64,000 nt of DNA from assembly GCA_051362555.1 (NCBI GenBank), contig CM120644.1:18870534-18934533 (forward strand). The letters run 5' to 3'. Shown here one piece after another: positions 8,619-64,000 of this stretch (position 1 is its first letter; the number at the start of each line of letters is the position of its first letter). This DNA comes from Lingula anatina. Its lineage: Eukaryota > Animalia > Brachiopoda. A model generated the notes under the pieces. That model was not told the origin of the DNA and did not search any database. It saw only the letters and a program-made list of their open reading frames with translations. Both the position numbers and the translations under genes were made by a program.

Positions 8619-8674
<56 letters not shown>

Positions 8675-9495: not shown

Positions 9496-9526
<31 letters not shown>

Positions 9527-20100: not shown

Positions 20101-21983
20101 GTGTTATCAAAATATAAAATTCATGATAATAAAAGAGTGCTAAATAGAAAATAAGCATTATGAAAATAAAATGTTTGAAAACGAATTTCTTTGGTCTTTT
20201 ATTTTATTTCATCAGTATCCTTTCTTTTCCTAAATTAATTGATGTTTTATCTCATAATCTTCAATTCTAAAAAAGTGGCAAAGCCCAGCATTAAATATTG
20301 TATAACTGTTCATTTAATCATCTCCTCTGGTGTTATTTTGGAATTTACCTTAAATATGAAAGAATTTCATAAAAATGTGAATTGCTGCAAAGTAACGCTA
20401 TATAAAATTTGCTTTGCATTAAAAGTACAATCATTATTATATGTAGATGCATGCATGTCCTCGGTTGTAATGTGTAGTGTCTGTCCGTGTGTGTGTGTCC
20501 GTGTGTGTCCTCGGTTAGAATGTAAAATTCTTGTCAGCAAAAAATTAGTTTTTATAAAAAATTAATTTATAACATTCATACTCGAATAGATTTTACCCTA
20601 AATTGAATGTTTTTATTTTGATTTAACCAAGGAATAAGATGTCCTCGGTTGTATGGTGTTGTGCTGATGTCCTCGGTTGGTACACATAGACAAGTATGTG
20701 TGCGTGTGTGTGTGTGTGCGCGCGCGCGCGGTATGTACGTGTGTGTTCGTGTTCTCGCGCATGCGTGCATACATGTGTGCATGTGGGAGAGTATATGTGT
20801 GTATATGAAAGAAGCCTTCTTTTGGTGATGACTGTCAATCGCCTCCCAGTATTTGCACCATATTTTCGATTGCGCCTGCAATGATGTTACCAATCCGGAT
20901 ATACAACACATGGTAAAGGGAGTTTTTCTCTTTAAGAAAATCTTTTTTTTTTAGTTTATAATGTGTTTCCGAACACAAAATAGAAATGTCCGAACGAAAA
21001 ATGTATATTGATGAAAGATTAAATGTGCATTCACTTTGGTTGTAAAACAGTACCACTGGTGATATTAACAAAATTGTCTTACTTTTACGTAATCATTGAA
21101 TTGAAATTATTTTAAAACAAACATGGAAATGGTCATCTTATGCAGCATCCCATAAGCTTACTTAAGTTTTTAAATACTTGACAAATGCATCTCTTTGTTG
21201 AATTCCAGATACAGACAGCAATGGAACCACCAACAAGATATGTTGTGAAATGGGTAAAGTCCCCTCAGAGAACAGCTGTGCGGAACGAGCCGAGACGCTC
21301 TCAGAGCCGTGCAAGACTGCCTTCCTCGACTGCTGTACGGACCCCGACAAAGACAGCGACAACGACGCCGTTAAAAAGACGTGCTGTGCTATGGCCACGA
21401 ACCCATCCGACCGAAGCTGTGCTGACAGATCCGCCTCCCTGACTGAGCCGTGTAAGAGTGCCTTCCTCGGTTGCTGTACAGACGGAGCCCAGAACAGCGA
21501 AGATGTTAAAATATCATGTTGTGAGCAGGGAACAAAACCGTCGAGTCGAACCTGCGCCGAGAGAGCCACGTCCCTCTCCGAGCCTTGCAAGAGCTCCTTT
21601 CTCGGGTGTTGTACAGACGGTGGTGATAGTAACGCCTTCCATAAAGTAACCTGCTGCAAAATGGGGTCGAACCCATCCGACAAAAGCTGCGCAGACCGAT
21701 CGGCGTCCCTCATTGAGCCCTGCAAGAGTTCTTTCCTCGGCTGCTGTAAGGACGGTGATGAGGATAACGTAGCCGCCACTAAGCAGAAGTGTTGTGACAT
21801 GGCGCTGGCGCCGTCTGACGGAAGCTGCGCCGAGAGAGCGCAGTCTCTGTCAGAACCCTGTAAGAGCGCCTTCCTCGGCTGCTGCAAGGGGCCCGATTCA
21901 GGAATTTTGGGAGGTGAATATAATCTATGAATTATCGTCGGAGATTGAGGGAGAGGGCTGGTTGGCGTGCGTGTATGTGTGCA

Positions 21984-26520: not shown

Positions 26521-27037
26521 GATTTGAACGTAATAATGTTGTAGTAAATGTTTGACGAAAAACATTTCGAGTTTTGATTTATTTCCTTTTTTAGATTTAA
26601 GTTTAATGTTAAGTATTTGTAAATGTCTAAAAGTGTTTCGAAAATACAAAGTCTATATGTGGCTTGTTTAAGGCACTTACTGACTTTGGGGATCTAATGA
26701 TCTCTTATAATGTAGGATTTATCCATAACACGTAAAGAAAATATAAATCCGTCTCTTATGATATATTCTTGGTTTTGTTTGACTCTCAGTTTGTGAAAGT
26801 TCTAGAGAGATAATGAGTAAATAAAGCTCATCTGTGGACTTTCTGTAATTACAAACGTTTGTTAGCTTCATGTTAATTGCTTACGAAAGTTTCCACAAGT
26901 GAGACTTTCTGTGGATTGATCTCCCTCCATTTGATGATGATATCTGTGTGTCCATTTAATGATATTTGTGTCCTTAAAATTGAGCTCTGGACTGGAATTG
27001 CATCTCCTCATATTTCTGTGTCCTTCATACCACGTGT

Positions 27038-29633
27038 TCAAATGCAACTGGTCTGGCATCTCCTAACATTAGCGCACGCTTTCACGTCCGTGTACTGCCA
27101 GTCATCGCACTCGGAGGCGTCAGCCCAGGACGGGTTGGGACAGTATCTCTCTCGGCGGACCGTACACCCGAGTTCTTGAAACGTGCACTGCACCTTCGGG
27201 GTACACGAGCCTCTACGGGGAGAGTTTCTGGAGGAGCCGGGTGTCTTGCGTGGAAGTGGGTCGGATTTGGGGATCTTTGGAAGAGGGTTTACTGGACGCC
27301 TGTCAGGGACACCACCGAAAGCACTGACATCTGTACCCTCCTTAGGTGCGTCAACGTTAAGCACTCCAGCATCGGATTTTCCGCCATCAGGGGCATACGG
27401 GTCAGGGAGACCTGGCACAGGGTCGTCATGGCCTCCCAGTAACACGGGACCGTCGGGTAAAACACCACCAAAACTTCCTACGTCTGTTTCTCCTTGTTTG
27501 GCTCTACCAGATCCTTGTGGTAAAGTACCACCTAGAACCCCAACGTCTCCACCGCCATTCGCTTTCTGTCTCCGTCTTGACGCCATACGACCGCGTACAT
27601 TTTTCAGAGTTTTCTTCACGTGTCTCCTGAACGCGTCGAACAGCCCAAAACCACCGGAGGTACCGCTTTCATCCGTCCCTGAAAATGTACCGGCTACTGG
27701 AATTGTCTTGTCTGGTAAAACGTCTGGTAAAGCGCCACCTACCGACAGGACTCCGACGTCAGAACCTTTTGGTTGGGTATTTTGGAAGGCACCCAGCGCA
27801 GCACGAATGCCTGCAAATCTCTGGTTGGCGTAAGCCATGAAGTCGTCAAAGATACCTCTTTTACGTCTGCTGTTGTGGTGAGTTGATGCTGAAATTGGGC
27901 AGAAAAAATATTAAAATAGAAAAACTTGTGGGTCAGAAGCAGAAGCAGAGAAACAGTAGTGTCACGGCTAATGTCAGGCTAATTGACATCTGCCGTAAAG
28001 CAAGTCGAATAATTTTGCTCTATCTTTAAACTTAACAAAGTTGTTTGAGACTAAATCGTTTCATGACTGGAGATGTTAATCTATAAATTTTCAAAAACCG
28101 CACTTTAGCTTGTGGACGTGGAAAGATGGAGAAGGGTACCAAAAATGTCAAAATTCAAATTTTCTAAAATAATTTCATTATATCAAGTCACTCACTCGGG
28201 TTATCATCCTTCGACATCAGCTGTAGGTATTGCAACTTGAGACCAGAGCAAAATTCCAAAATGGCCTCGCTCAGCACGGATGTGTCGACCGGAACATTCA
28301 GCGCCTGGTAGTACTGGTTCTCCACTTTACCAATCCTCAGTGCTGTGTTCTGGAAAGGTGTATATAAACGGGCTCTTAGAAGTCATCAAACACACATTAA
28401 CTCTATCAATGATTTTTCCTATCTTTTTCTCAAAAACAGTTTTGACTTTCAAGTAATTCTACGATAATAGATAAATAAAATTACATGATTGAATGAATGG
28501 AATGCAAAAAGTATCAAAATGACTTACAAAATTAATAACACAAAAATTGCATGTAAAACAAGTTAGATATAAAGTAACATATATGTTTTACCGCCTATAA
28601 ACTGCCTTTACCTTCTCTGTTTCATAACTTTTCTGCACGCCATCTATTTCCTCTTCTGTCATGGAGGGCTGCATGTCCCGGATGTAGCAGGTCATGTCGT
28701 CCATCAGTCTGAGGACGACTTTTCTCTAGATTTTGAAATAATTAAGAAATAATTAGAGAATCTATTGCGGATCTGGGAATGGGGATACACAGCTAGCACG
28801 TGCTTTGTTACGTTCAGCTCTGGAGGTATACCTTCTCCCTCTTAAAATTTTAATTAATCAAATTAATAAATCTAATTTAAATTTAAAACCCAAAAAACGC
28901 ATAACACGCGAATTGAGACAAAACGAAGGTATTTTCTCGTTTCTGTACCAAACATTCTATGGGTGAAATGTCTACTGCTTTCCTGATGTACACGTACCCT
29001 TGAAAACACCTAAATATCTTCTTAATGTTTAATGTTGTATTGTAGAAAGGTATATTATAATATTAATGTTGGTTAAAATTACAAGAAGAAGAGATAATTT
29101 TCGGAATTGCTACGAAAGACACCACCTACTGCTTTATAATCGTAGACAACAAAGGTTTCCGTCTTTTGGTCATGTGGAATATAATGAACTGCTTCCAGCG
29201 CCCTCTGGCGGTCCAGCCCCACTTCCACACTAAATACATCGTTCTGCCTATTGAAAAGGGCAGCTCGAAGCTGAAAGTAAAATTGGTATTTTTTCAGTGA
29301 CAATAATGCTTAAATCGCGACCATTTACATTTTACCTACATCTCAATATATTCTGAAAGTCATTTTCTCAAAAAAAAAAATACACTGTTAAAATCACAGT
29401 ACGTGCATTTTCCTTGTCTATTATATTTTATATTGCAATGTTACGTTCCTTTTATTTACCTTCAATACATCTTCGGTGCTTTCACCTGACAGGAAAATAA
29501 CCAAAAAAGCCACAGATGTCGCTAAGGTCGCCAGGAACAGTAAAACCACGCCTGCTATTACGTATTTACGTCCTCTGCTCTTCCCGCCGTTGTTCTTGCC
29601 GCCACCACCCTCGCCTTCTGTGTTGTATGTCAT
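27038..29633 (-). CDS. Type II membrane BRICHOS-domain precursor, ~477 aa, with furin site and Cys-rich C-terminal peptide
   Basis: Coding exons 29633-29460, 29270-29130, 28725-28612, 28349-28196, 27888-27038 (1,434 nt). TM: YVIAGVVLLFLATLATSVAFLVIFL. BRICHOS hallmarks: VVYDYK...TCYIRDM...ILEFCSG. Furin site RRKR; tail with 8 Cys. Confidence 0.85.
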
Positions 29634-30885
29634 AACGCCTAAGACCATAATAACAAAAAGCTGAATCTTAGAAAGATTGGTATTACGATATGTACAATTT
29701 ATGACGTGATTAGACACGAAAATACTCCCGTAAAATATTTGCGCCGTATACCGTATGGCTTGTTTTGAATAAATCTGCTTGGCCTTCTTACGCAATGTGC
29801 AGCAAACAGCTTTGAGTGTTTTAATCCACCGGCAGTGATTTTCATAAGTTCGTCAAGGCAAGAGAAAAGTTATTAGTTATCTTTGTACATCACACTTGGT
29901 GAATAATCGTGTTTTTTTATTCAAATGTATTTTATCTGCTATAAATCTTAATGTAGGTCTATTTAAGTCACTGCAGCACGCTATTTTTCTGCACCTCGCA
30001 CAAATTGCTTTTCTAAAGTCACGGTTTGGTGTGACTCTCCGCTGTCACGAGATGTAGGTGATTCTTACCATTAAAGTCTGAATCACTGATGAACACATCT
30101 CCTACACCTCCTACTAACTTCCAAAACCATTTGGGCTACCCGTTTACAAAACTTCAAGAATTCAATTTTCACCGTAACAGAAGTTCTCAGCCTTGCAACT
30201 TTTTCAAACATGTGACTTAAAGTAGGCCCTTAGCCTATAAATGGATTATTAAGAAATGTTAAAACTTGCGATTTGTGAGAATTTTACCAAAATGAATAAG
30301 CAGTAAAAATTCACCTAAAATTTTTATTTTTTATGAATCCTCAAAGGTGCAAAGCATGCATGTAGCAAGAACGTGACAGTTGTATGGAGTATTTTCTCAT
30401 TTTGATTTGCAAATTATTCTACAGTTTTAGCAAAGTTGTAAACGTTTATAATTGCAAATATGAAACTCTGTCCTATGACAAACTAAACTATTTGCACTGC
30501 ATTTACAACATTTTAAAAGCAGAGGTGAAACACGTTACCACACGTAAATCTGATTCTCTTTAAATGGTTCAAAATGCTTTAAAGATGCACCTCTGTTTAT
30601 AAAGAGAGAAAGTTCACAATAAAACGCCCACTCCCTGGTGCGGCACCACAAACCGCTGGTCACTCTGGGCTGGACGCTGGTAAAAAAATGGTCCCTCAAC
30701 CCCTACCCCTCTCCTCCACCTCCCCCTCCCCCTCCCCCTCTTGTCGGTAAAATCGGTCAAATCTATTCAATTACACACCTCGCACAGGCCATCCTATCTT
30801 AAAAGAAAATTTGTCTTATCATATCATCATAAAATCATAATTTAATCAATTCACACATATGATATCAGTGATATTGCTTTCTTAC

Positions 30886-30985
30886 CTGTATTGCTTATAG
30901 CGAATAGTTTGAGGATGAGCGACTCTTTCTTCCTACCAGCTCCTTGACACAATGAGAAAAGCTGAGTAAGTGGCGGGCTTATAAA
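30886..30985 (-). promoter_or_regulatory. Putative TATA/Inr and non-coding first exon of the BRICHOS gene
   Basis: Minus-strand TTTATAA at 30985-30979, TCATTGT at ~30955, donor CAG|GTAAG at 30886; matching acceptor at 29639-29640, 5 nt before the ATG. Confidence 0.5.
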
Positions 30986-31470: not shown

Positions 31471-34142
31471 AAGTAAATGCATTTGAATCTTCCACAGTCT
31501 ATTTTCACTCACTGTTTATTCCTAGCAAAGCGTGGCCTCAAGTCTGCGCTATCAAACCCAACTCAAATATTATTTTAGCACCTGTCAATTTATAAAGTAG
31601 AAAGTACCTTGGAAGGCATGTTACTTTGGTTTGCGGTCGGCTATTAGTTCGCCTATTTCCTCTTTTTACCGCACGCTTCCCATTTTAAGTATGACGCGCA
31701 CGCGAAACTACGCTTTGTTTATGTAGAGAATGATCTCATGCTTCCATTCGTCACCTAGTGGCAGTTTGCCGTCGGAGGGCAAAAACATGTGGCTTTTATT
31801 TACATTTTCTGCTCTTCTACATAAACACATTGTACTTTACCAAAAAAAAAAAAGATGACGGAAAACAAAATAAAACAAAAAGATGGCGGAGCCGTGTGAA
31901 GGGGGTTGAGGCGAATATACAGTCTTTTTTTCAAATAAAAAAGATGGACGAGGTGTCAAATTTCAGTTTCAACCTTTTAAGCAATCACACACATACACAC
32001 AAATAAACACACGCACACACCCTGTACACACACGCACGCACACATACACACAAATACACAAACGCACTAGCTGGTAGTTCGCGTGCACTGTTACCTGTTA
32101 GTAAAGTAATGCAAACACGCGCTTGTTCCTTGCATTAGATGATATCCATTGAACACGTGAATACCATGGATTCCTGGCGTTTTTCTAGGGACTGCTGTTC
32201 ATTTACTCTTTCACTCTGTGCAGAACAACTTTTTAAGGTTATATAATACTAAATTAAAACAATAACTCTATGGTGATATATATTGTGCCGTTTTAATTAT
32301 TACACGGAAAGAATAACTTAATCACGCAAGTTAAACACGTAGCCGACACTTGCATAATGGCAAAAAACAACGCAGTTATTTATAATCTAGATACATGTAT
32401 TAACATCGGCCAATATGTCTTAAAGAGCAGCATTAATGGTTGGTCTACAAAATAACCCCAAGAACATTAAAATGTGATTGTGGGTTCACAAGTGGAGAAC
32501 TTGATATTTTCATTATTTGAGGGGCATTTTAGAGTCCTTTTCGCGAGCTGAGTCATATAATATAAACTAAAGATGACTGCAGCAATAAAGATAACGAGTC
32601 TAGCCTAACGAAACAACTTGCAAAATTCTATTCTCGCAAATGTTAATTATACTAAGACTTAATCCTTGACTTATACAGGTCACTTTGTGAAGTACATGTA
32701 TACAATAAACACCACGATAATAAAAAAACAAGACTATTTTTATTGCGTTTTGTCCTGTTTATTTCTCCTTAAATAGACAGAAAAATTTCAATGAATAAAT
32801 GGCCCCATAATAGTACTACTTGGATTAATTTATGTTATGAGTCACGTGGGTATCTGTTTATCTGCGTACTAATGGGAGTTGTTTAAGTTTCACGTAATCC
32901 TGTCCTGATAGTCACCTCTATGTGCGTCTATAGGGTCTATTCCCACAACTTTAGATCGATCTATCACCGCGGGGAGTCTCACCAGACTACCGTCAGCTAA
33001 TCCCCCTTAAGTGTCCGTCCCCGCCCACTACAAGCCGTAAGGGGCAAATAACTTTCGTGTCCGCCCGGCTGACAGCTATTCAGCGCGAACCCCCAGGGAG
33101 TTAGGTCAATCCAAAGTAGGTCGATCTAATCTATGGAAATGGGGTGTTTGTGAATCACGTTTTCCTTAATTCTTCTTTGGTTACATTTCTAAATCCATAT
33201 CGCTGGTGGCGTGGCAGTCTCTGTTCTCAGTTGTCTTTTGCCCAGATCATCACGGAAACGTCTTTCTGCAAAAGAAGTATGGACAAATTGTTGTAAAGCA
33301 AATGACATACTCTTTTGATAATTACAAAACAATTAAAACAGAATCAAAATGTGTAGGAAGTTATTGAGTGCAAGTAAATTTCTTTAAGTGTCAGTAAGGG
33401 TAGAGATTGTTCTCGAAGTAAGAAAGTATGGAACATTTCAGAGTCGGATATAGTTGGATCTGATTGGCTAATTTTTCTATCGATTTGCTCGTTTTTAATA
33501 CGTGTAGAACTCATGCATACTCGAGTTGGATAAGATCCAAGATGAGTAATTCGGAAAATATTTTAAATTAAAAACAAGTCTCATTTAAATTACTAAATTA
33601 GAAAATATTGAATAGCGTATTGTAACATGAGCATGGAAATTAGAGTATAAATACTTCTGAAATCGTGTAAAAAGAGAATCGGTGAATAAACGTAAAAAAG
33701 CTCCCAAACTGCTGCCGTCATTCCTCATTATATAACAAAATGAAGAAAACCAAACACTTCAAACAAAGGTACAACTTTTATTAAGCAAGAAACACGCACC
33801 GTTTGATATCTTCTAAACATATCTTTATATATATATATATATTTTTTTTTTCGGGGGGGGGGAGCAGATAGAGGCGGCACTCTACCTCATAATTTAAGGA
33901 AGAGGAAGTGCCTCCCATGCCTATAAGAGGTATTATCTAGCTGTTACAAAATAGTATACCAGTCTTTCATATCATTTTGTAACAGTATGCGAAAATATCC
34001 AGTAGAGGGCAGCACTAGGCTAGGTAGGGAATAATGCCAGAAAAAATTGTTTAGTTGGTTCGTTAAGGAGCGGCAAATCTCTGGAATATTTTTTTAACGA
34101 ATTATTTTTTAACAAACGACTCCCCGCATTTCGGGACTCACC

Positions 34143-34329
34143 TCACTGAGCGTCCGCGTGTGTCAGCTGATTGTTGCCTACCTTGCAACAATTCAGGAAT
34201 CCGGTTCTACAAGGCTCGCTCAGGGTCCGGGCTCTTCCTTGACAGTTTTGCCCCCGATTCCGCATTCCCATTACACAACACATGCCTCCGATATCTGATG
34301 TGAAAGAGAATTGTGAATTTTGTAATTTA

Positions 34330-34377
<48 letters not shown>

Positions 34378-34508
34378 ACCTCTATCTCTATCTCTCTACC
34401 TCTCCTCTTCCTTACCTCTTTCTCCCCCTCTCTTTTTCTCTCTCTCCCTCAACTCTCTCTCTCTCTCTCTCCAGCGTCTCTCTCTCTCTCTCCCTCCCTC
34501 ACCTCTCT

Positions 34509-34554
<46 letters not shown>

Positions 34555-35146
34555 ATACGTTAGTTTGAAGACAGAAAACTACCAAGCACAGTGCAAATGA
34601 GTGAGTCGTCCAGTAGTATTTATCATAAATGAAGTTTTATCGTCTGTAACTGGTCTACTGTGACAGGAATAGTATTCCCAGGAACATTGGCCCGGGTCCC
34701 TATGATTAGTACACGTTAGAGTTTACTGAGAGTATCGAGGTCAGTACATTGGACAAATGTTACTTGTACTAAGTCACGGGATAAGAGCTATACTTGTCAC
34801 AGCGACCGAGGTCTATGCCATGTATGCGAGGGAGACTCAACGTCCCCAAGAAGACGAAATCGTAAGTTTAAACACTTTGCTAAGTTTTGTCTAATTGCCA
34901 ACAACCATCAAAGACAAGGTATGTATTTCCCCTGCAACTGCGCTCGTGTCCAGTTAGATACAAAATTATTTTAACGACAAATAATATTACATAAACAAAA
35001 GCAAAACATACCCTGATAACAAATAGATATGTGACTGTAAATGGCGAATACTATGTTATCTACTAATCAGTACCTTGAGAACTGGCAAGGTTAAACATCA
35101 GAACCAAACACAGGCAAACCACAGCAATGTGTCTCATGGCGGCCAT
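34143..35146 (-). CDS. Secreted single-ANATO (anaphylatoxin-like) peptide 1, 74 aa
   Basis: Exons 35146-35074 and 34294-34143: MAAMRHIAVVCLCLVLMFNLASS|QDIGGMCCVMGMRNRGQNCQGRARTLSEPCRTGFLNCCKVGNNQLTHADAQ*. TATATAA at 35211-35205. A 3'-UTR intron leads to an exon starting at 33265. Confidence 0.8.
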
Positions 35147-37719
35147 TTCGAATCAAGAAGGCACTCTGAAGACGGCAGTATAACTAGGATGTGTGACTTG
35201 AACGTTATATAGCGCTAGGCGACCGCAGGCCGAACCCTTCGCTTTACCGTGGACGGAACTCGTCTTTTTATTATGTCCGCGTGAGTCAGGTGCGCTTTCA
35301 AAACAAGGTGTTGATTTAATTACAGTGCTTCTTGCTAAGAAAAGAGACGGACTTGGGCCGAAGCCAATAAAATAGCGTACATGCAGTGCCCCACCCACCA
35401 CCGTAGATTTGAAGAAAAACTTTTCAGTTACTCCTCACCCAATGAAAATTATAGCAAGTAAAACGAGACAAAAACCAAACATTTTACTTGCGGTGCATTC
35501 AAACACGTCTGTTTTGCGTACATGTATTCGTTTGAATATTCATAATAGTGGTGATTTCATGTTCAAATTGCATTTTCAAAGCTTATTTATTTTAGATCGA
35601 ATAATGTTAGAAGTTGGTCAGATGATTAATGTGTATCATCACATTGCCTGAATCTCTAAACGTACATTGTATATTACAAAAAACTGCAATCAGTGTTTTA
35701 AAAGATCTTTTCTGTTGTAAAAGGATTTAGACACTTCAGTTGTGGCTTCCTGGTTAAGATTAAAATCATCCTCAGTTTAATTGTGCTAAAGGTGTGGTAC
35801 AAGCATCTTAATTGGCTTCAACATTACCAAATTCAGAAATCAATTTCGATACATATACGTATGTGCTTCCTCTTGTATACTGTATTTAGAGGATATTTGT
35901 AGTTGTTGTATTCTTATAGAGTTTGCTAACTCCTAATCCCGACCAAACAAGACGTCCCGATAGCTTAATTTCCCGGGCCGTAATTATAACGGGACTTCTA
36001 TCAACAAGAGCCTCATACCTATATATTTCACACCATATACGCGTGCTGACTTGTTTTATCTTTTTATTTCAATTCGCGTTATAGTTACACTTATTTGTCT
36101 ACTTATCTTCCTCTATGTATTTGTAATTTCATTTTATTTGATTTGCACCGCAAAATACCCCCTCTCAGAAAATAAATTAATTAATAAAGAAGGAAAGAAA
36201 GAAAGAAAAGAAAAGAAATGAATAAATAAAGTGAAATACGTAAATAAATAAATGGATTCTACTCGGGAGAAGTGGGGATAGATATTTCCTCACTTCCTCC
36301 ATGTTGACCCGACTTACGGCCGGTGCACATCCTGGAAGATGCCGTCCTCAAATCTAGTCTGTTTACCATGGCTTTAACAAATAAACATATCAGTTGACGT
36401 AACCTTTGTTGACATAAATCAAGCCCCGATGCATTTAAATACTGTGCTCCGGTACAGTGCTAGGAAACAATAAGGGCTCTTCCTTTCTTCGAATAATGAA
36501 TATTCATGAACGGTGGCGGGGACGGGAAGACCGTTTGCAGTTTATATTGAGACGCTATGGAGAAGCAGCGACTTTGTTTCAAGATTTCTCTTAAAAATGA
36601 TACTTTTATTAGTAATAAAGAATAAATTAAAATGAAAAATAAAAATGAAGATAGAGATAAAATAAAAATTAAATAAACGAATTAAAAATACTGAACGTAT
36701 TTATTTTCTGTATTTATTTGTTTATCAGTTAAAAATTACTAACCAAAACCGTTTTCTATTCTTTTTATTAAACAGTTTTCAACTACGTACACTGACCAAT
36801 ATAGCGTATTTTACTGAGATTCTTTTTGATAGCAAATGTCACTCCCGTCTCTATCTCTTCAACTAGGTGTATTTAAACGCATTTCCAAGATCAGAATTTG
36901 AATTTCTCTCGGTTAGAGTGAATCACTTTCTTTTTCTTCTTCCGCCGCCTTTACAGGTAATTTACTTAACACTGCAAAAATGTCGCATGTTATTCTTGCT
37001 TTACTCACAAACAAAAAGTCTCACTTTTCTGTAAAGGTTACACAAATAGCTGCTGTCAAATCATTTCATCATTTTGTGATATCGCTTTTGTCTGTCATTG
37101 AGAGCTAATTTACTTTAAAAACTTTCCTGACGTATTTAAATCCATACCGCTGGGTTACTCATAACTTCTGTGACGGGTCGTCTTGTGCTATGTCCTGGTC
37201 GTCATGTAAACCGCATCCTGAAACCGGTATATTTCAAGACGCGTCAGTAATATCAAATATGGCAAAAATGAGCATTCAAAATTAACAACAGAGCAATTTA
37301 CAATATAAGTTTATTTCAAACGATTGAATAGGCCTAAGCTAAAAAAAGAATTCCGCATAAAAGGTAAAATAAAAAAGTTTTACGTAGGGTACAGATAGAT
37401 TACAGATGTTCAGTAAGTACGCCTTTTTTTTTTTTTTTTCTTTTGCGGGGGGGGGGGGGGGGGGGTTGCGGAATAGCAGAAAAGGGCGTCATATAAAGAG
37501 AGCATTATTTTATAAAGGAAGGTGAGAAACCGCCATTAATTTTTTTTGATGAGCCCAGCCTCTTTTCTCTCTCAGGATCGACAAATTAAAATCTTTAATG
37601 CCTTGCATGGCTCTTTTAAAAATTTAAAAATTACTTTAACTTAAAAAATCATAACAGAGTGTGAGAATCGTAATGGAGCGACCCTCAATCCCCAACTTCT
37701 CACATTCCTGGCTTACCTA

Positions 37720-38559
37720 TTATTTTAAGTACACGTCCCCAAGCAGGTTAATCCCCCTGTATTGCATGCAGCACTGATGGAAGTCGGTTCTGCAGGGTTC
37801 GGGAATCCTGGCAGCTCTCCGACCGCAATCTGGGCCCATATACCGCTTCCCCATCGAGCAGCACATGCTTACGGAAGCGGAGTCTGCAGGTTTCTCGGGT
37901 TTCGGAGCCACTAGCGTTTCAAGAGAAGTGAAAATAAATAAAAATGAAAAAAAATAATAATAATAAATTAGGTGAATTAATCAAATATGCTAAATGTTTT
38001 TGTTTATTTATGGATTTATCAGAGAAATAACCGTGGTTTCACTGTGAATTTTAAACTTCACAACCGAAACTGTTTCGACGGATTCTGTTCTCTTCATTAA
38101 CCACCTTTCAACTTTGTACTCTGGCCAATATAACGTATTTGATTGAGATTCTTCTTGATAGCTGACGTCACACCCTGCTCTCCATATTTTCAACACAGTG
38201 TGTCTCAGCGCATTTTTCTATCTACTGGTACCTCTCCCTAGCTAATTAATTTTTCATACAAATGCGAATGATAGTTAAGATCGTTAAAAGGATATGAATG
38301 TTGAATAAAGGAAACATTTCCCTCACTGGAGAAATGTGAAGAACAAGCTAGCTCGCTGTAAGTATAACTATTAAACACCGACTAACGGGTTTAAAAATCG
38401 TGACCATCGCTTGAGAGACGATGAAAACTGGATGCCACTGCACCATGATAATGTTCCGATTTCATCAGAGTATTAAAAATATTTCAACAACTTACTTTGC
38501 GAATCAGCATTACGGGTCGTCAGAAGCAAAAACAGAAAAATTGCAACGGCGAATCTCAT
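37720..38559 (-). CDS. Secreted single-ANATO (anaphylatoxin-like) peptide 2, 84 aa
   Basis: Exons 38559-38496 and 37910-37720: MRFAVAIFLFLLLTTRNADS|QMAPKPEKPADSASVSMCCSMGKRYMGPDCGRRAARIPEPCRTDFHQCCMQYRGINLLGDVYLK*. TATATAA at 38664-38658. A 3'-UTR intron leads to an exon starting at 37217. Confidence 0.8.
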
Positions 38560-41066
38560 CCTGGACTTTATCCGCAGGAAAAATTCAGCCTATGTATACA
38601 GCTTATTTTAACAGTCCACAGCAGGTAGTGTTACTGCAAACTTTTAAATAGTACAAGTTATATACCTGTTAATAGGACAACTTAAATGTATAAAAAAACA
38701 TGTTTTGTAACTTACAATGGAGCATAAGTCATGTCATAACATATATCAGTTAATCTTTATGGAGTAACTTCTAACCCTTTTTGCTTAGAAGTGATGATAA
38801 TACATGCAGCACAGGGGCCTATTATGACGTAATCTGGCCCTGGAAGATGTTTTTTTCTGATGTAAAGTATTCCTGTAGATATACGTATTAGATTATAATT
38901 ATACATTGCAAACGGCACTTAGCCACTGCAGTTCGATTCTTTTTGGGTAGGACATGTTCAGTGTTTCAACAATTCTAGTTCAGCTTTGTTTGATATTCAA
39001 TAAATGTCTTTTCACAAATGTTAGGTCTCAGAAGACTTGATAAGACAGGTATATGTCACTGGGTTTGAAACTGTCTAAAGCTAATATTTTCTTACGTATC
39101 TTGCAAAACTGCATATCTAAAAAAAAATCCGAACAGACTTTCTGACTTGCATCCAAATAAAAAACCCTACCAAAACACTTCGCATCACTTTGATGCCGAA
39201 TCAGATATCCTTATATGAGCGTATGTAAGTGTGCTTTCCCAGAGATTTAGATCGATCTAAAGATTAAGTTTTAGATCGACCTAACTCCCTGGGGGTTCAC
39301 GCTAAATTGCAGTCAGCCGAGCGGGCACCATAGTTAATTACCCCCTTACAGCTTTTAGTAGGCGGGACAGACGCTTAAGCCGGCCAAGCTGACAGTAATA
39401 TAGTGAGACTCCCCACAGGGATAGATCGATTTAAAAATCTATGGAAATGGGGTGTAACACAGCCGATTCCATCTGATATGAAAAAAACACAGCTTTAGTT
39501 ATTTAATGTCAGATAAACATGAAACTTTTAACCACGAGCAAGATAACAAGAATATTGAGAGCTATTTTAGTGCCATTTCCCAAACAACCGCGTACCTTTA
39601 CAGGCATTAAGCAGTTGATTAATATGTATGTACTGTACTTCGACCCCCTTCCCTTGCCTACATGTCCGATGTATACATCTATAAAAGAATTAAATAGCCC
39701 CCCCCCCTCATCCCAAGTGATACACACTATTTATCATTTCAACAATATATGATTAAAATAAGGATAACAATGTGATATGAATGATATCATCAAAGGTTTA
39801 AATGCACCTGTCTGCCTGTCGAACTGTTTATCTGTGTTGTCCCGATAATTGGTCGGTGTGGTTTTTGCTGTCATGTTTATGATGGTACTGATTGAGGATA
39901 TGAAACAGCGGCTCGGTTTGTAGGGAGAGATTAGGGACTGGATGTGGATCGACCCAACACTACGGGGACTCACGCTGAGTGCAATCAGGTTATCTGAATG
40001 ACACACCTCCTCTTGTTTACAATGTACACGTTTAATCACCAACTTTTCTGTATTCTACTTTAGATCTACCCCAGAATGTCATACAGTTAAGCTGATTGCA
40101 GTCCGCGAGAGTCCCGGGAGAGTTGGGTCGAGCCACGTAGACCGATGGTGTTTGTAGGAATGGGGCCTAATAGTTCATAGAAAACCTCTCCAGCACTGCC
40201 AAATTGGCCTATTAGCAATAATATTTTATAGCAGCCCTTCTTTTTAAGAAGATGGCAGCAATGTTTTCATTGGAAATAAATAACGTGGAAATAAATAAGA
40301 TGATAAAATATTTGGAGTTGATTAAAAGGCTACTCAGGTATGAAATAAAATACTCAGAGCGGTGTTATTTATTCAATAGTACGGTATTTTGTCCTCTCCT
40401 CCTTAAACCCATTTAAAGATCACTTTTTTGTATTATGGTTGCCTTTATCCCTTTGCTTTACCAGGCATGGACTAAAAAAAAGAATCCTTTATAAAATAAA
40501 AACAGGTTTTATTGTGGGTATGGATAAGACAGCACGAGAGGCTGAAAAGGGGACGAAGAATATAATGTATTTTTATCACAGTTAACGTGCAACAACGTGT
40601 TTTGTGCGCTTAAATAGTTTTTTCTCTGTTCATTATTCTCACTGCTTGTACTAAGTCACTTCTCAAGTACATTTAATTTACTAAACCTGGTGCGGTGTGT
40701 CATTAGTGGGTGCACTTGTTATTATCATCATTATTTTTATATAGCCATCTGAACACTACTTTCCTTCAAGGATGACAAATACTCTTTATCCTCCATGAAA
40801 CCAGTTCCTCGTCGTTTTTTTTAAATGCCATATCATATTATATTTTTCTTTTTTCCCTTTTTCTGTCATTTCTTTAAAACTCGTCTTATCGACAACACGT
40901 TTACAAAGATGTCTTGCATAGCGTATTTCCTTCATTTTCCACACACTCCGGTTTTACCATCCTATAAAGTCCAGAATATTCTCTGCATATTTCTGCAACT
41001 TCTTTTCACATCTGTCCTAATTGTCTGACAGCTACTCGTGACGCATACAAGTCAAATGACTTCCAA

Positions 41067-42098
41067 TCATAATTCCAATTTCTTTTTGGCTGCCTTTTTC
41101 ATCTTTTTAGCCGTTTTCTCAATGGTTTTGTCCACGAATTTCTCAGCGTTTTTCTTCGCCGCTTTTCCCAGCTTCTCCGCTGCTTTTTTTAAGTCCTTTC
41201 CAAGTCCTGCCTCAGCAAAGCGGTCCTCGTTCGTAGTTATCACTGTTACATTAAAGAAAAAAATGTGGCATTAATCAATCTAAGTAAATTGTTGCCTGGG
41301 TAACTGGAGAGAGAGACAGAGAGTAAATAAACGCACGACTCACGAATGAATTAGAAAGGCTGTCATGAGTGTGAGATTACGTCAGCAATAAATTAATAAT
41401 AATAATTATTATTATAATAATTGACAGCAGAGAAAATTAAACCCAATATTTTACTGAAAAAATCGTGAAAAAAAATTAAGCAATTCGTCAAAACATTTTA
41501 ATAAACGGAATATACACTATCGTATTACTAAAAGCAAACACCCAGTCATATAGCCATCCTTTCGGCTATCTGCGTAACACACTCGGCACAGTGATAGGTG
41601 GCTATACATATCATATTACTAACGCGGCCTGAATCGTATATCTTCACATGTTGATTATATTAGTACAAGCCGCTATATTGTATGAAACTAGTGAAATGGA
41701 ACGTGTCTTTGTAGTATTGGTCAGAGATTCAGCGTGTTGTTACCTATGCCAGGTACATGTACGTCACAAGGAAATCCTTCGCCACATTTTTGTTAAAGGC
41801 ACAATTTGTGGAAAGTTTATAAATGCCTTATGTTAGACGAGGAGTAAGACAGCGCAGCACTACTGCAGTATAATACATGTACCAGAACACCCTCTTATAT
41901 ATGCTACCGGTTATTAGTAAATCCCCAAATACATGTACACGTATACGATTATACTCGGCCTTACTATTAACTCTGAATGGGATTCAGACATAAAGACAGC
42001 ATGCTTTTACGCGAACAACGGGCATATCAATTAATTGTGAGTTAATGCTTACCAAGAAAGACAATAAATACACAGAATATGAACGTCTCGGTCCTCAT
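41067..42098 (-). CDS. Secreted Lys-rich amphipathic helical peptide precursor A (AMP-like), 73 aa
   Basis: Exons 42098-42053 (46 nt) and 41242-41067 (176 nt): MRTETFIFCVFIVFLVITTNEDRFAEA|GLGKDLKKAAEKLGKAAKKNAEKFVDKTIEKTAKKMKKAAKKKLEL*. Confidence 0.8.
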
Positions 42099-44031: not shown

Positions 44032-45107
44032 TTACAATTCTAGACTCTTCCTAATTGTCTTCTTGACTATCTTTGCCGTCATGTCGACGGTTTTATCAAT
44101 GAACTTCCCCGCATTTTTCCTCACGGTTTTCTCTAACTTTTGGAAACCTTTCTGGACCATCTTCCCCAGACCCGCCTCCACAACATGCTGTCCATTCAAA
44201 TGAAGCACTGGAACAGAAGGAAAGAAAAAATCTTATATATTTAAGGCACAAGTATATAATAGGAAATTAAATAATTAATAGAATTAAGAGAGTAATATGT
44301 AAATAACACGGGAACGCATGCGCTCACCGGCAAGCACGTGCGTGCACGTCCAAATGTACAAATACGAACTTGTGCACTGCGAAATCATAATAAAAAGGTA
44401 GATTAGGCAGACGCATGTACACTCACTACATATATACCTGTGCACTGCAATTTCCCAGTTTCTATATTTAACATAAGATATCGTCCAAAATAACAATCCA
44501 GGTTTACTGGACCTCTGCCAGACATTGTGCTTGTATGTTATGCGGTACGTTGAAACAACATGCCCCGTTAACTACATGCTCTGTTGGTAAGAAATAAAAA
44601 CGATGCCAATTTTGAAATAAAAAAATTTTGAAATAAAAGCAAGGACAAGTGTTGATTTTCCAGGTAGGTATATATTTTTATCCCCCCAACACAGCCCATT
44701 TTAGTCTGACATGACGGCATTAGTCGCTGCCAACAGCCACACAACATTCATAAGGCCTAACTGTAACAGCCTACGTAGCGCTGTCGATGCCTTTCGTGAT
44801 TCACTGCAGCTTTTATCATACTACAGCAGATTAAGTATTTTTAACATTGATATATTAGTGTTTATATCGAAACTAAACACAAGTTGGACCGTTGTCAATA
44901 ATTATTCGCGGAGAGTTCTTCCAAAACTGTATCTAGGACGGGTTATCTGATTCTCTTTAGTGGAAAACAAGTGCACCCAACGATAAAATGATTAAAGAAG
45001 CGAATGGCAAAATAACTGGCTATCGACTTATGGCATCTTATTTCAATATCGAAATACTTACGCAAAATCGTGAGTATGACACAGATGACTAGCGTCTGGA
45101 GCCGCAT
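44032..45107 (-). CDS. Secreted Lys-rich amphipathic helical peptide precursor B (AMP-like), 73 aa
   Basis: Exons 45107-45062 (46 nt) and 44207-44032 (176 nt): MRLQTLVICVILTILLLHLNGQHVVEA|GLGKMVQKGFQKLEKTVRKNAGKFIDKTVDMTAKIVKKTIRKSLEL*. Exon sizes and phase are identical to precursor A. Confidence 0.8.
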
Positions 45108-52733: not shown

Positions 52734-53258
52734 GCTACGGCCCCCTCAAAACTAAGAAAAAACAATTTTTCTCTTATATGCAAATTAGATTGCCTTGAGT
52801 AATAAACTGGCCGGAAGTGAAGTTCATCTCTGTAAAGAGACCGGCGCAAGCACAATCTAAATGACGCTGCAAACGAAGTTGTCAGCGGGAGGGCAAACAA
52901 ACATTAGTATTTTGGATAATTTCAAAGAGATAAAAAAAGTTTCCAAAATTAATGGAAATATGAAAAACCATATGTGGTTTATAAGTAAGCATTTTCTCTT
53001 TCAGGTTTAAGAGCACAAAACAAGGTCATTTTAATTAGTACTTTTGAAATATATTGAATAAAATGCATAGTGAACGAAAGACAATGCAAGATTTAAGTTT
53101 TTTTTCCAATATGTATTTTTTCTTATTTTTATTCTATTTTGTCTTTTTTTTTTTTTTTTTTTTTTAACATTCACAAATGTAGACAAATGAAATCCTGTGA
53201 AATATCCATGGGTTTACTATATAATAAAGATAAAAGATCTGAAAATGAAAAAGCACAT

Positions 53259-53329
53259 TGCATCGGCCGGGAATCGAACCCGGGCCGCCCGCGTGGCAGG
53301 CGAGCATTCTACCACTGAACCACCGATGC
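53259..53329 (-). tRNA. tRNA-Gly (GCC)
   Basis: GCATCGGTGGTTCAGTGGTAGAATGCTCGCCTGCCACGCGGGCGGCCCGGGTTCGATTCCCGGCCGATGCA; complete cloverleaf; T-run terminator downstream. Confidence 0.95.
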
Positions 53330-55569
53330 TTGTCCACTGTTCATTGTAACTTAAACGAGACTCTGACCTTCGACCTCCTTCGGTGTTATCTTCAAATTTA
53401 GCTCAAATACTGGGTCCGGTTAGCCTTGGACATAAAAATATTCTCTTATTATGTCCAAAGATTAGGCAACCCATCAAACTGTATAGCATATCACAATATT
53501 TTAAACATGAGTAAACCAATTTTGTGGGACGCAGCGATTTACATATTTACAGATACAAACAGACATATAGGTCTATCTTTGCCATGCACTGATGTGCGTG
53601 ATGAATGCAATAACCGGCACAGGTATTAATTTTACTTGTTCAGTACATCCTGAACAATGAACATGCATTGCATAAGGCTTCTAAACAAAAGATGTCCTAA
53701 GCGACATTGCTCAAGTTATTTTGGCATAATCGTTTCTTATTCTATTTTAATTTTTGAAACCATAGCGCGAGTGCGCTGCAGACGACATGTAATTTCGTTT
53801 GAGGGAATGCAAATGTTCCCGCGACATGCTGTATATGCAACAAGTTTTTAAAATGAACACTTTATATAGGAAGGGTATAATTTTGTGGATTTAATATAAT
53901 TAGATATTATAAAATGATTTGGAATTTTCTCATGTAAATCAGTAAAGTAGAAAATGTAGCCCAACCCATCGCCCCTTAAAACTGATTTCCGTGCCTTGAC
54001 CTATGCTCTCCGTCAGAACACACACTTATGTTTCGGGGGAAAAATTTCAGAGCAAAATTCACATTTTGAAATTGTAATTTTTACAAATTGAATCATTGAT
54101 CTAAACCGTAACAAATGGCATCGTCTAAACTCAAAAACAAATTTTTTTTCGAGGCCCTTAAGCAGTCCACGAACCCCGCGCTAAGAGGACGAGGGTCGGC
54201 TACGCATCCGAGACCTGTCATTCTTAAAAAAAAAATAAAAAGAAAATAATAAATAAATAAACGGACCCCCTACAAATTGTCCTGGATCCATCCCTGATAC
54301 TACAAATAGATTTCTATCTCTTTGACCCCATTCCCATAGATTTTAGATCGATCTATCCCTGTGGGGAGTCTCATTAGATTACTGTCAGCTTAGCCAGCTT
54401 AAGCGTCTGTCCCGCCTACTTAAAGCTGTAAGGGGGAAATTAACTATGGTGCGCGCTCGGCTGACAGCAATTTAGCGTGAACCCCCAAGGAGTTAGGTCG
54501 ATCTAAATCTAAATCTAAATCTTTGGATCGATCTAAATCTCTGGGAATGCACCCTATGGCTGTATTCCAAGAGCTTTTAGATCGATCTATCCCCGCGGGG
54601 AGTCTCAATAGATTACTTCAGATAATCCGGCTTAAATGTCCGTCCCGCCTACAACAAGCTGTAAGGATGGAATTAACTTTCGTGTCCGCTCGGCTGACAG
54701 CTATTTAGCGTGAACCCCCAGGGAGTTAGGTCGATCTAAAGTAGATCGATCTAATCTCTGGAAATGGGGTCTTTGATTTTGAAAGTCGGAGATGATTCAT
54801 TTAAAGAGGCAGAAGATGGGGTGCAGTTGGAGTGGAGAATTCGTTCAAAATGACTGGATATTTACCTCATTATGCCTATATTTTTTCAGTTGATTAGCAA
54901 TAATACCCATAAGAAATAAAATTATTATAGCAATAAATGCATATTTTCAGGGGAACATTCAATCATATACTTCCCGTGGAACTGAAAAATGTTTTAACTG
55001 TTAGAATATTAAATTTTACTATTGATTCCCATATGAGTATATTCACGCTGCATAAAAATGGACGTCTCTTCTCTCCACTCCCACACACGCATCCAACTCT
55101 GAAGACGTATGCCCCCCTCCCCCAGGGGCGGATCCAGACACATTTTCTGACAGTCTTCCAAATTATCTTTGTTGATCCATCCTACATTTTTGACCGTCTA
55201 CCGACAAAAAAAATTAGATACCCGTCAATGTTAACTTAATAATCTGACCGTCTCGACAGCGCAACAGTTAACGCAGTCTACAACATGTCAGGACTTTTAT
55301 TTTAAAGAAATGATTTATTGTATGAAATGAAAGACTTCGTTATCTTAACAAAAAACCCTACTCATGAAACTAAGACAAGTTTACGCTTGTTAAAATATAT
55401 TTTGAAATATACGTAAATAACATAATGTAAATACAGAGGTGGAACCAGGATTATTTGAAGGGTGGGTCCGGAACTACAGGCCTCGGATGCTAAGCCGACC
55501 AATGCCCCCTTGGGGTGGTATTCGGGGCTTGCTCAAGGGCACATTTTTCTTTTCTTTTTTTTTTTTTTT

Positions 55570-55950: not shown

Positions 55951-56021
55951 TGCATCGGCCGGGAATCGAACCCGGGCCGCCCGCGTGGCAGGCGAGCATT
56001 CTACCACTGAACCACCGATGC
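55951..56021 (-). tRNA. tRNA-Gly (GCC)
   Basis: Identical 71-nt sequence to the copy at 53259. Confidence 0.95.
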
Positions 56022-56949
56022 TTGATACCCGATTACTCACCCACCCCCCTCCTCACAAATAGGCCTCGTCCCGCATCTCCCCCCCCCCCCCCCCCTTCCA
56101 ACTGCGGTGTTGTCGTCAAACTTAGCTCAAAGCCTGGGTCCGGTTGGGCAACATATCAAACATATCACAAAAAATGTTAAAAACTGAGTAACCAATGTTT
56201 CTTTTATTCTAAATATCAATAAACATATTTATTTCTGTGGAATGCAGTAATTTACATAATCACAGGTAGTCCTATCTCTGCCATGGCCACTCATAGATGT
56301 GCGTGATGACAATGATAATAGACACAGGTATTTGTTTTACGCGTTCAGTGCATTTTGAATACGGAACATGTATAACATACTTCCTTTAAACAAAAGATGT
56401 CCTAAGAGACATTTTTTAAAAACTGTTGCCGACTTTTCCAGCAGTTTTTTTTTTTCGTCTTCAAATAAGGGCAAAATGAATTAATAACAATGCAGTTCTT
56501 TAAAAAAATGCAGAAATGAGCTCCGACGAAGCAGAAGCGCGAAAGTCCGCTGGAAGGCAGGTGCAAGGTAAAAACACAATCACGGTTGAGACACCGAGGC
56601 GTCCTTGGCCTTTCGATACTTTTTGATAAATAGTGTGCAGCATATCATTTTAAAGCATTTGAAATGTACTTTTTTGTGATGTGGAAGACAGATGTTTTCT
56701 CCACCACATGTATGGAATAGAGGCATAAGAACCTGAGTCAATGAATTGCCGATAAAAATGGCGATTTTCAGACACACCTTCACGACAAAATCTCACAGAA
56801 TTTTTGTAAATATTACAATGACAGCAAACATTATACATCAGCTGAAAGATAATTTTCTTCCGAACAAAACCCCATCTATTAAACTTGTTGTTCTGGTATA
56901 ATTTTAATTCATTCACTGACTAAACATGTAAACGATCTGAGCACCAAAT

Positions 56950-57430
56950 GTGACACATTCAAATATGTACATGTAGATGACACCACAATTCTAAGCTACG
57001 AGAATACCAAACTGCAGGACAATCTCCCTGATGCAACAACAGAACTCACTCTCTGGTCCCATGCTAATAAACTAACAATAAATACTACCAAGACCAAAGA
57101 GATCATATTTGATTTCTCCAAAAAAGGACACAAAACTACACCCTTACTAGTAGTTATAATCAAAGGATTGAGAGAGTGGGGTCTGCTGTCTTCTTATGGG
57201 TTAGGAACAGTAGTGATTTGAGCTGGGAAGGTCACATCTGTGATATGTGTAAAAAAAGCAAGTAAAAGGCTAAATAATCTTAAGCTTCTGAAAAGAGCGG
57301 GTATTCTAACCAATGAACTTGTAAGCTTTTATACATCCGTAATCAGATCTACATTAAAATATGCATGTCAGGTGTGGCACCCAGGTATTACACAACAACA
57401 AATTAATAAAATTGAATCCATCCAGATACT
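56950..57430 (+). mobile_element. 3' fragment of a second (CR1/L2-like) LINE reverse transcriptase
   Basis: KYVHVDDTT...INTTKTKEIIFDF...KKASKRLNNLKLLKRAG...YTSVIRSTLKYACQVWHPG...IESIQ, abutting the opposite-strand LINE. Confidence 0.75.
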
Positions 57431-59976: not shown

Positions 59977-61439
59977 ATGAAAGTAAGATATACTTACTGT
60001 ATTTGGACTCTATTTCCTATCCATATTTCCCTTTTTTTTTTTTTTTTTTTTTTGATAGCATGCATTACATGAAAATGACTTTTCTTTTTTTGGTTGTAAT
60101 TGAAAATATTTTACTGACTCTAACCCCTATTTTCCTTTCAAAGACCTACATTTTATTTTGGGTTGTTCTTTTTGTACAAAAGTTTCACTGTACAGGTATC
60201 TGCCTAGCCATCCTATGTAAGCATGTAGCAGCTACCTCATGGCAGGAATAAACATGGCTGCCTGCTAGCATATGGACTGAAAATGTCCCTACTTTGTTTG
60301 AGTACATATCGAGCCCAACCCTCAGACAAGCTGATTTTCACATATATTTCACCTTATATTCATATCTTTTCAACCGTGAATAATTAGCTTGTTTGAGGCA
60401 GGGGCTCATATAAAAAATGAACATCTTTTATCCTCAAGTCACTGTAAGATTCTTCTTTCAATCAGCACTACATTTAAGAATAAAGCAATCGAAATATTGA
60501 TCACAAGCAGTGATTGGCCACTTATTGCCTTTCTTTTTTACACTGGCACCTTCTGTACCCAATTACAAAATTTCACAGTTGTCACCTTACTATTACTAAA
60601 GAAATGTAGCATTAGAATTCAGACCCCCCCCCCTAAAACACACATTTTCATGAATATTTGACAAGGTCATTTTGCCATTAATTTTTTATATTTCAAATTC
60701 AATAAAAAATATTTTTAGGTGGATTATAAAAGTGTAAGACCCCAACTTTAATTTGGCATCAATTTTTTCCATTCATTCACAATTTATTTTTCACGTACAA
60801 AAGTGGGCACTTTTACCCCCTTATTCGCACTCATCTTTTGAATAATTTTTGCGACATTAATTCATGACATATAAGTCCGTGAAGATATGATCAAAAAGTA
60901 TTGCTCTCCCTCAAACAAGGCGTATTTCAAATAACTCTGTATATTAATCTCGAACAGTTTAACAAATATTTTGTCTTTTAAATCAAGAAGTGGTTTATGT
61001 TATGTTACTTGACGTTGAATGAGTGTTTGTCACTTTAAGTAGGCGGGAAATACGACTTTAAGTATTGAAATAAGATCAAATAAGTTTATTTAGTTGTATT
61101 TGATAAAATATATATATATATATAAACGTTGAATATCAATCATGAATAAATTTACAAACACCTTGACCACTGAATCTTAAAATCGGACAATTTTCACATT
61201 TCGCTTTTACAGGGATTGTACCTCTTTGCCGTACTAGTTGTCGCAGTAGCCATAGCGTCACCCATGCGACGAAACACGCACAGATGTGGAATTGGTTACT
61301 ATAAGAATGGTGGATTTTGTGTGCCAAGAAATCCTAGAGACAATCTTGCCACGGAGACATACTGCCCATGGTATATGATCTATGATGAAAAACCTGGCAG
61401 GTATGTTTACTATCTCTCGATCGATCTCATTCACAATCC

Positions 61440-63602: not shown

Positions 63603-63672
63603 TGCATCGGCCGGGAATCGAACCCGGCCGCCCGCGTGGCAGGCGAGCATTCTACCACTGAACCACCGATGC
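63603..63672 (-). tRNA. tRNA-Gly (GCC) with a 1-nt deletion at the variable loop/T-stem junction
   Basis: 70 nt; the plus strand reads aacccggccg instead of aacccgggccg; otherwise identical. Confidence 0.8.
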
Positions 63673-64000
63673 TTGATGTCTCACTTCCTGCCCCCCCCCC
63701 CCCCCCCCTCATCCCGCCTCTCCCCCCATCCCCTTCAAACCGCAGTGTTCAACGGTTGTCAAAGCCTGGGTCCGGTTGGGCAACACTTTGAATATATCAC
63801 AAGATATTAAAGACTGAGTAACCAATGTTTCTTTTATTGTAACTATTAATAAACATATTTATTTCCGTGGAATGCAGTGATTTACATAATCACAGGTAGT
63901 CCTATCTCTGCCATGGCCACTCATAGATGTGCGTGATGACAATGATAACTGACACAGGTATTCTTGTTACGCGTTCAGTGTATTTTGAACACGGAACATG

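Follow-up and report, generated by a model that had tools for sequence, protein, structure and literature searches.

Background

In the literature examined, the anaphylatoxin-like ANATO domain sits only inside the complement proteins C3, C4 and C5 and inside fibulin-1 and fibulin-2. The complement anaphylatoxins C3a, C4a and C5a belong to the alpha chain of a thioester protein, from which a convertase releases them, and C3a and C5a consist of four helices (PMC11220139). The modules of fibulin-1 and fibulin-2 lie outside complement and lack helix 1, three of them being fused into one domain of a large matrix protein with a cbEGF array and a fibulin C-terminal domain (PDB 8r5w); in fibulin-2 the disulfides join cysteines 1-4, 2-5 and 3-6, and the loops, as derived from the cysteine numbers, measure 12/12/6 or 12/9/6 (PMC11220139), in comparison to 12/12/6 in human C3a and 15/15/6 in pearl oyster C3 (PMC8089394). 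Here we describe two genes, A and B, on the minus strand of a 64,000-nucleotide stretch of the genome of the brachiopod Lingula anatina (assembly GCA_051362555.1, contig CM120644.1, positions 18,870,534 to 18,934,533; referred to as the window, with positions counted from its first letter), each of which encodes a signal peptide, an N-terminal Gln and one domain of the pattern CC-x10-C-x10-C-x6-CC, at the place where an initial annotation had put them. They present a known domain in a new architecture, namely as stand-alone, expressed ANATO peptide genes, found in one species so far.

Genes A and B share with the complement anaphylatoxins the six-cysteine pattern, a Gly after CCxx, an Arg after the third Cys, a Phe four residues before the last CC, a cationic character and, for gene B, a predicted C5a-like fold. 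They differ from them in being genes of their own, with a separate 5' end, a signal peptide and a stop after one domain, in their 10/10/6 loops (also present in five embedded repeats described below), and in the absence of the first helix. In addition, C3a continues for about 20 residues after its last cysteine, whereas the tails of A and B have 13 and 15 residues, are near neutral and are unlike each other, and the terminal Arg of the C3a type is missing, A ending in Gln and B in Lys; the convertase-site region is itself variable and poorly conserved in invertebrate C3 (PMC8089394). In comparison to the fibulins, A and B hold a single module followed by a stop. Defensins, big defensins and macins are cysteine-rich antimicrobial peptides of marine invertebrates that are made with a signal peptide. 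Big defensins are described as such in PMC7203481. The products of A and B are likewise small (<10 kDa), predicted to be secreted, cationic, built on a disulfide core, tandemly duplicated and polymorphic, but they differ by the all-helical ANATO fold.

In excerpts of the literature on Lingula or brachiopod anaphylatoxins, the domain appeared only within C3 or the term only as an abbreviation (PMC9835746, PMC11312191), and no stand-alone form was evident from titles or abstract beginnings in the literature on invertebrate ANATO domains. No match joined the terms anaphylatoxin-like, secreted and chitin-binding in a literature collection whose coverage is thin for subscription journals and excludes the survey of Lingula immune genes by Gerdol et al. 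(2018); an earlier mention of these genes in that survey is, at a guess, a real chance though the lesser one.

Gene structure and transcripts

Transcripts were examined in seven of nine RNA runs from the same species (X1, X3, X4, X5, X7, X8 and X9), with about 6-30% of the reads of each run being used. Gene A has 71 codons in three exons on the minus strand. Exon 1 (35074..35170) carries a short 5' untranslated region, the ATG at 35137, a predicted signal peptide of 20 residues, Gln21 and a phase-1 donor, and many molecules start or end at 35157-35174, which is 20-37 bases before the ATG. Exon 2 (34142..34294, 153 nt) holds the ANATO core (34280-34185), the 13-residue tail and the stop (34145-34143), which lies at the exon end, 1 base ahead of the donor. 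Exon 3 (32755..33265, its lower end being approximate) is 3' untranslated, and molecules end at 32754-32755. Intron 1 was joined in all seven runs, either at 34294/35074 or in a variant of the same length, and intron 2 (33265/34142) was joined in all four runs covering it, with a variant start of the 3' exon in X7 and X9. A copy of a repeat resembling a miniature inverted-repeat transposable element (MITE) lies inside the 3' untranslated region, and some reads leave it out (joints 32928/33147). The plus-strand frames at 34720-34971 had no Pfam match and almost no reads.

The exact joint 34294/35074 was found in 31, 61, 3 and 75 reads of X1, X4, X7 and X9 in the first run set, and in 6, 128, 0 and 113 reads of X3, X5, X8 and X9 in the second. 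The same-length variant, defined by 23 letters that differ from or agree with the window, was found in 172 reads of X7, 329 of X8 and 739 of X9; read by hand, these letters contain a silent change at Cys26 and the replacement Val28Ser. Five further coding differences were among those listed, three silent (His3, Cys27 and Arg33) and two replacing (Val7Ile and Gln40Glu), so that four of the seven readable codon changes are silent, two of them on Cys codons, with an intact reading frame and both of the first Cys codons kept; this count rests on the read differences listed, which are a minority of all. Single-base gaps occurred in a minority of gene A reads, at 34213 in 22 of 83 reads of X4 and at 34180 and 34183 in 95 of about 1350 reads of X9. 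Since other genes also differ from the window in X7-X9, the variant of gene A may come from a divergent allele or from an additional paralogue.

Gene B has 84 codons, also in three exons on the minus strand. The coding part of exon 1 (38496..38559) begins with the ATG at 38559 and encodes a predicted 20-residue signal peptide and Gln21 before a phase-1 donor, and a TATA-like word was noted by eye at about 38664-38658. Exon 2 (37717..37910, 194 nt) encodes a Pro/Lys-rich N-terminal arm, the ANATO core (37863-37768) and the 15-residue tail, and the stop (37722-37720) falls at the exon end, 3 bases ahead of the donor. Exon 3 (36796..37217, with its start at about 37217 and molecule ends at 36796) is 3' untranslated. 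The intron 1 joint 37910/38496 was present in four of the seven runs (2 reads in X5, 37 in X7, 28 in X8 and 22-28 in X9) and had zero reads in X1, X3 and X4, and the only joints across intron 2 were ones in which a few letters differ (37208-37210/37715; 9 and 12 reads).

All four modelled introns of A and B have GT..AG ends, and the four runs with stranded behaviour have their first mates on the plus strand, as expected for RNA from the minus strand. Among the joints listed, none connects A with B or either of them with a neighbour. The cysteine spacing is exactly CC-x10-C-x10-C-x6-CC in both genes, and Gln is residue 21 in both. A looser CC..C..C..CC motif matched seven times in the six frames of the window, namely in A, in B and in five tandem copies on the plus strand at 21241-21885, in comparison to no match in 100 base-shuffled windows. 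The signal peptides were recognized by hydropathy only (Kyte-Doolittle 9-mer value of 3.5), the cleavage before Gln21 being placed by eye (Ala at -3, Ser at -1); the N-terminal Gln may be converted to pyroglutamate. The predicted mature peptides of A and B have net charges of +3 and +4, masses of 5.5 and 7.2 kDa and pI values of 8.7 and 8.9, respectively.

The two genes are identical at 17 of 32 core residues, and the starts of their third exons are homologous at the DNA level (alignment score of 79 versus a maximum of 58 in 500 shuffles). No DNA similarity passing a blastn E of 0.05 was found among the ANATO exons of A, of B and of the five tandem copies, indicating that the duplications are not recent. 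A coding role for exon 3 was considered and rejected, because the stop falls in exon 2 of both genes and exon 3 is thus untranslated. A and B are two independent, spliced and expressed paralogues and not parts of a larger gene. The initial annotation had asked for spliced transcripts, had given net charges of about +3 and +4 with Arg-rich cores, had proposed that no complement cleavage is needed, and had named an origin as fragments of a longer known gene as a refutation; the joints in seven and four of the seven runs, the charges computed for the mature peptides, and the stop in exon 2 after one domain together with separate 5' ends and signal exons agree with it in each respect.

Assignment to the ANATO family

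A Pfam search with exon 2 of gene A returned ANATO (PF01821) with an E value of 6e-4 and 21.1 bits, and with exon 2 of gene B an E value of 0.016 and 16.6 bits, both over the full length of the profile. ANATO was the only Pfam family found for either exon, with no family of the defensin type at E values up to 10. A profile made from the seven modules of the window was further compared with the sequences of the PDB, and 37 of its 38 matches were chains or fragments of C3a, C5a, C3, C5 or C4 (best E value of 1.7e-6), one of the 37 being cobra venom factor, a relative of C3; fibulin was not among the 38. Human C3a scores 29-31 bits with this profile. Gene A alone matched human C3a weakly, with an E value of about 0.01 and 16 of 32 core positions identical by eye, with two gaps.

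For gene B, an AlphaFold model of exon 2 built with the seven-sequence alignment contains helices at H11-22, H28-33 and H39-50, with pLDDT values of 77-87 over the core and a mean of 72.9. Foldseek ranked C5a first for this model (E value of 0.18, probability of 0.99, TM score of 0.59), and VIA, run against 48,161 chains, also placed C5a first (Z of 5.9, rmsd of 4.4, 58 aligned residues) and the ANATO module of fibulin-2 second (Z of 4.9). For gene B, therefore, a three-helix core resembling helices 2-4 of C3a and C5a is predicted. The N-terminal arm of gene B (modelled without its first two residues) is a Pro-rich coil and its C-terminal tail is predicted to be a disordered, low-confidence coil, while gene A has just 6 residues ahead of its first cysteine. 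The disulfides of A and B would probably pair as in C3a.

Several values weigh against this assignment. The Pfam scores of A and B are both below the curated cut-off of 21.4 bits, all Foldseek matches of the gene B model lie above an E value of 0.001, the Z of 5.9 falls in the range that VIA treats as weak for helical bundles, and a single-sequence model of gene A reached a pLDDT of 47.5 and has no helices. Taken together, the sequence comparisons and the predicted fold point to one family, ANATO, with scores that are modest for a small helical domain, and this is the family and, for gene B, the C3a/C5a-like fold which the initial annotation had expected.

The protein collections searched contain neither A nor B. 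A profile search of 1.84 billion representative sequences gave two matches, both from Lingula (XP_013379695 and XP_013400808); its threshold of about 35 bits is above the score of human C3a, so stand-alone ANATO genes of other animals could escape it, while the score expected for A and B is about 79 bits, which indicates that A, B or close relatives are not among the representatives. A word-based homologue search found nothing for exon 2 of gene B (34-109 aa), and the seven-module alignment confirmed none of ten candidates (24-109 aa). The ESM Atlas gave no usable match for the ANATO exon of A or of B, a result of low recognition that carries no weight either way. A pattern scan of metagenomes reduced 518 pattern matches to three loci, two of which were rejected as rubredoxin-like frames of bacterial type that matched only the Pro/Lys arm of gene B.

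Embedded modules and exon shuffling

The five tandem copies form a single exon of 705 nt at 21209-21913 on the plus strand, with the same spacing as A and B and a Pfam ANATO match above the cut-off (E value of 3.6e-15, 57 bits). This exon lies 12 kb away, on the opposite strand and with another gene between, and shares 98% identity with Lingula anatina XP_013379695, a protein of 1122 residues with Pfam matches to CBM_14, EGF, TIL and ANATO; a fibulin C-terminal domain is not among its 11 Pfam matches. The modular gene to which the exon belongs (CBM_14, EGF, five ANATO, TIL and WAP-like) spans about 460-26270 on the plus strand, the WAP-like exon being present, and by eye its region also holds exons without a counterpart in XP_013379695, two of them Sushi-like near 7000-7560 and additional EGF exons at 8290-10880. 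The second Lingula protein, XP_013400808, lies outside the window and is secreted, with the order CCP-ANATO-CCP-ANATO, a 12-residue first loop and a seventh Cys in each ANATO module. The NCBI names of the two proteins, 'fibrillin-1' and 'complement factor H', were assigned automatically and give no hint of ANATO, and 'fibrillin-1' is misleading.

Both proteins come from the same species as A and B and share Glu-Pro-Cys with them; their modules differ in being embedded in multi-domain proteins and in having neutral or acidic cores, and only those of XP_013379695 have the identical spacing. Glu-Pro-Cys before x6-CC is invariant in the seven modules of the window, and Glu-Pro-Cys and the Phe are common to all eight modules aligned. 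A and B are identical to the five repeats at 12-18 of 32 core positions, the highest value being that of A and repeat 1 (18 of 32, ungapped), and with a profile built solely from the five repeats A scored 38.6 bits and B 23.0 bits. The core charge is +4 and +3 in the free copies, which are Arg-rich, in comparison to -3 to +1 in the embedded copies.

The five-repeat exon and exon 2 of both A and B are entered in phase 1, and the first two, with 705 and 153 nt, are multiples of three, while the 194 nt of B are not. Phase-1 entry together with a length divisible by three, as in the 705-nt exon and exon 2 of A, is the anatomy of a shuffled exon, and Lingula has been reported to shuffle EGF domains often (PMC4595640). 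Since a chitin-binding/EGF protein carries the same module five times and a CCP protein carries it twice, gene architecture suggests that ANATO is a mobile exon of this lineage, and A and B probably arose from a shuffled phase-1 ANATO exon followed by tandem duplication. Because A matches repeat 1 at 18 and human C3a at 16 of 32 positions, the module appears complement-like, and similarity suggests that it may descend from C3 rather than from fibulin.

Neighbouring genes

Two further peptide genes, H1 and H2, lie directly upstream of A and B on the same strand. H1 (41067..42098, coding exons 42098-42053 and 41242-41067) encodes a 27-residue leader and a Lys/Ala-rich peptide of 46 residues with a net charge of +11, and its paralogue H2 (44032..45107, exons 45107-45062 and 44207-44032) a leader of the same length and a Lys-rich peptide of 46 residues with a net charge of +9. 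The leaders end in an Ala-x-Ala-like motif (Ala/Val-Glu-Ala), the hydrophobic moments are 0.70 and 0.75, and the joints 41242/42053 of H1 and 44207/45062-45063 of H2 were each found in four of four runs. H1 and H2 are candidate linear helical antimicrobial peptides. They had been overlooked in the initial annotation, as had the five-ANATO exon.

Other features were also noted in the window. A spliced, expressed gene at about 26640-30930 on the minus strand encodes a Gly-rich region, dibasic sites and, by eye, a C-terminal stretch resembling thrombospondin-1, with no Pfam match at an E value of 0.1. The MITE-like repeat, of about 200 nt with inverted ends and abundant in RNA, occurs at 1517-1740, 4831-4990, 32930-33150, 39228-39460 and 54320-54770, and three near-identical tRNA-like sequences (Gly-like by eye) lie within a longer repeat at about 53255-53330, 55955-56025 and 63605-63675 on the minus strand. 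An exon at 61210-61400 on the plus strand encodes a hydrophobic leader and then a small Cys-containing peptide without a Pfam match, and broken frames of a non-LTR retroelement, resembling an endonuclease and a reverse transcriptase by eye, extend over 57400-59410 on the minus strand.

Possible functions

We favour, at about even confidence, the reading that the products of A and B are small, cationic, helical peptides of innate defence with three disulfides, which bind to microbial surfaces. A signal-peptide exon is spliced onto a single ANATO exon, in which the stop lies. The product would be exported and probably cleaved before Gln21, and three disulfides would lock three helices with an Arg-rich surface, so that control of the effector would lie with transcription and secretion and not with a convertase. 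What favours a microbe-binding peptide is the Arg-rich core of the free copies together with the adjoining genes for amphipathic Lys-rich peptides. The larger proposal, that ANATO of Lingula left C3 in the form of a mobile exon and gave rise to a directly secreted family of immune peptides, clustered with a second, hitherto undescribed linear helical antimicrobial family, is held more tentatively, at somewhat less than an even chance. C3a itself shows antimicrobial activity in vitro (PMC4298222), and it is the C-terminal part of C3a that yields the peptides active on microbes and on the receptor (PMC4298222, PMC10796979). On the other side of the balance, this active C-terminal antimicrobial part has no counterpart in A or B, net charges of +3 and +4 are modest and not diagnostic, and the modules closest in spacing reside in a chitin-binding/EGF, matrix-like protein and not in C3. 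H1 and H2 have no meaningful Pfam match, and the four genes are not in step across the runs, the joint reads for A, B, H1 and H2 being 128, 2, 12 and 204 in X5 and 852, 28, 14 and 38 in X9. The earlier term 'C3a-like effector' therefore holds in part: ANATO homology and, for gene B, a C5a-like fold stand, and the C-terminal Arg tail, the first helix and a charged tail are missing. A and B are not a simple copy of C3a, as they have no Arg tail and no first helix and carry their charge in the core.

The missing tail also bears on a cytokine-like role, in which A and B would be secreted mimics of C3a that act through a receptor on coelomocytes to cause chemotaxis or activation without complement cleavage. 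The complement-type fold and sequence, the chemotaxis reported for invertebrate C3a-like peptides (PMC8089394) and an N-terminal Gln that would suit a protected signal peptide are in line with it, and the poor conservation of the convertase site in invertebrates (PMC8089394) suggests that a tail of the vertebrate type may be unneeded; with no C-terminal Arg, with unrelated tails in A and B, that of B a low-confidence coil, and with a vertebrate C3aR that is activated by a C-terminal 15-mer analogue (PMC10796979), we regard this role as unlikely. The shared spacing, which is unusual, the invariant Glu-Pro-Cys of the seven window modules, the 12-18 of 32 identical core positions and the scores with the five-repeat profile (A 38.6 and B 23.0 bits) would also fit peptides with a structural or adaptor role in a chitinous matrix or in mucus, which would pair with the embedded repeats of the neighbouring chitin-binding protein, the more so as the free and some embedded copies are oppositely charged and as the fibulin-2 modules, also without helix 1, form a dimer interface (PMC11220139). 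Expression of gene A and of the five-repeat exon was uncoupled in four runs, with depths over the five-repeat exon of 1.17, 0.14, 0 and 0 in X1, X4, X7 and X9 in comparison to 7, 20, 58 and 272 in the gene A bin, showing that the five-repeat gene is nearly silent in these runs and silent in the two where gene A is highest; a term search of two supplements on the Lingula shell proteome (PMC4595640, PMC13425148) gave no ANATO entry except one Swiss-Prot C3 row, from databases that may omit these genes, and a matrix role thus seems rather improbable.

The CCP domains of XP_013400808 raise the question of complement regulators or decoys, which would compete with native C3a or bind proteins of the C3 pathway, as two such modules are combined with two CCP (Sushi) domains in this protein and brachiopods do possess C3 and factor B (PMC11312191). 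The name 'complement factor H' is automatic, and nothing was found that connects A or B to C3. CCP domains are moreover common outside complement, which leaves a regulator or decoy quite improbable. We consider it highly improbable that A and B represent transcribed debris or parts of a longer ANATO gene, with no functional product, a reading to which the single-base gaps in some gene A reads and the absence of both proteins from the collections searched could point; both have their own 5' ends, canonical splicing, an intact signal and six cysteines kept despite only 17 of 32 shared core residues, changes at Cys codons in gene A reads are silent, and the modular gene lies on the opposite strand with another gene between.

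Conclusions

A gene for the bare domain separates ANATO from the proteolytic cascade, which makes the role of the disulfide core without the C3a tail directly testable, and the locus provides four small, expressed and apparently unannotated peptides (A, B, H1 and H2), which could be made and assayed at low cost. The five-repeat and CCP-linked forms show ANATO shuffled in one lineage and bear on how the domain entered C3 and fibulin. If the larger proposal of an escape from C3 is true, Lingula would have an anaphylatoxin without a complement cascade.

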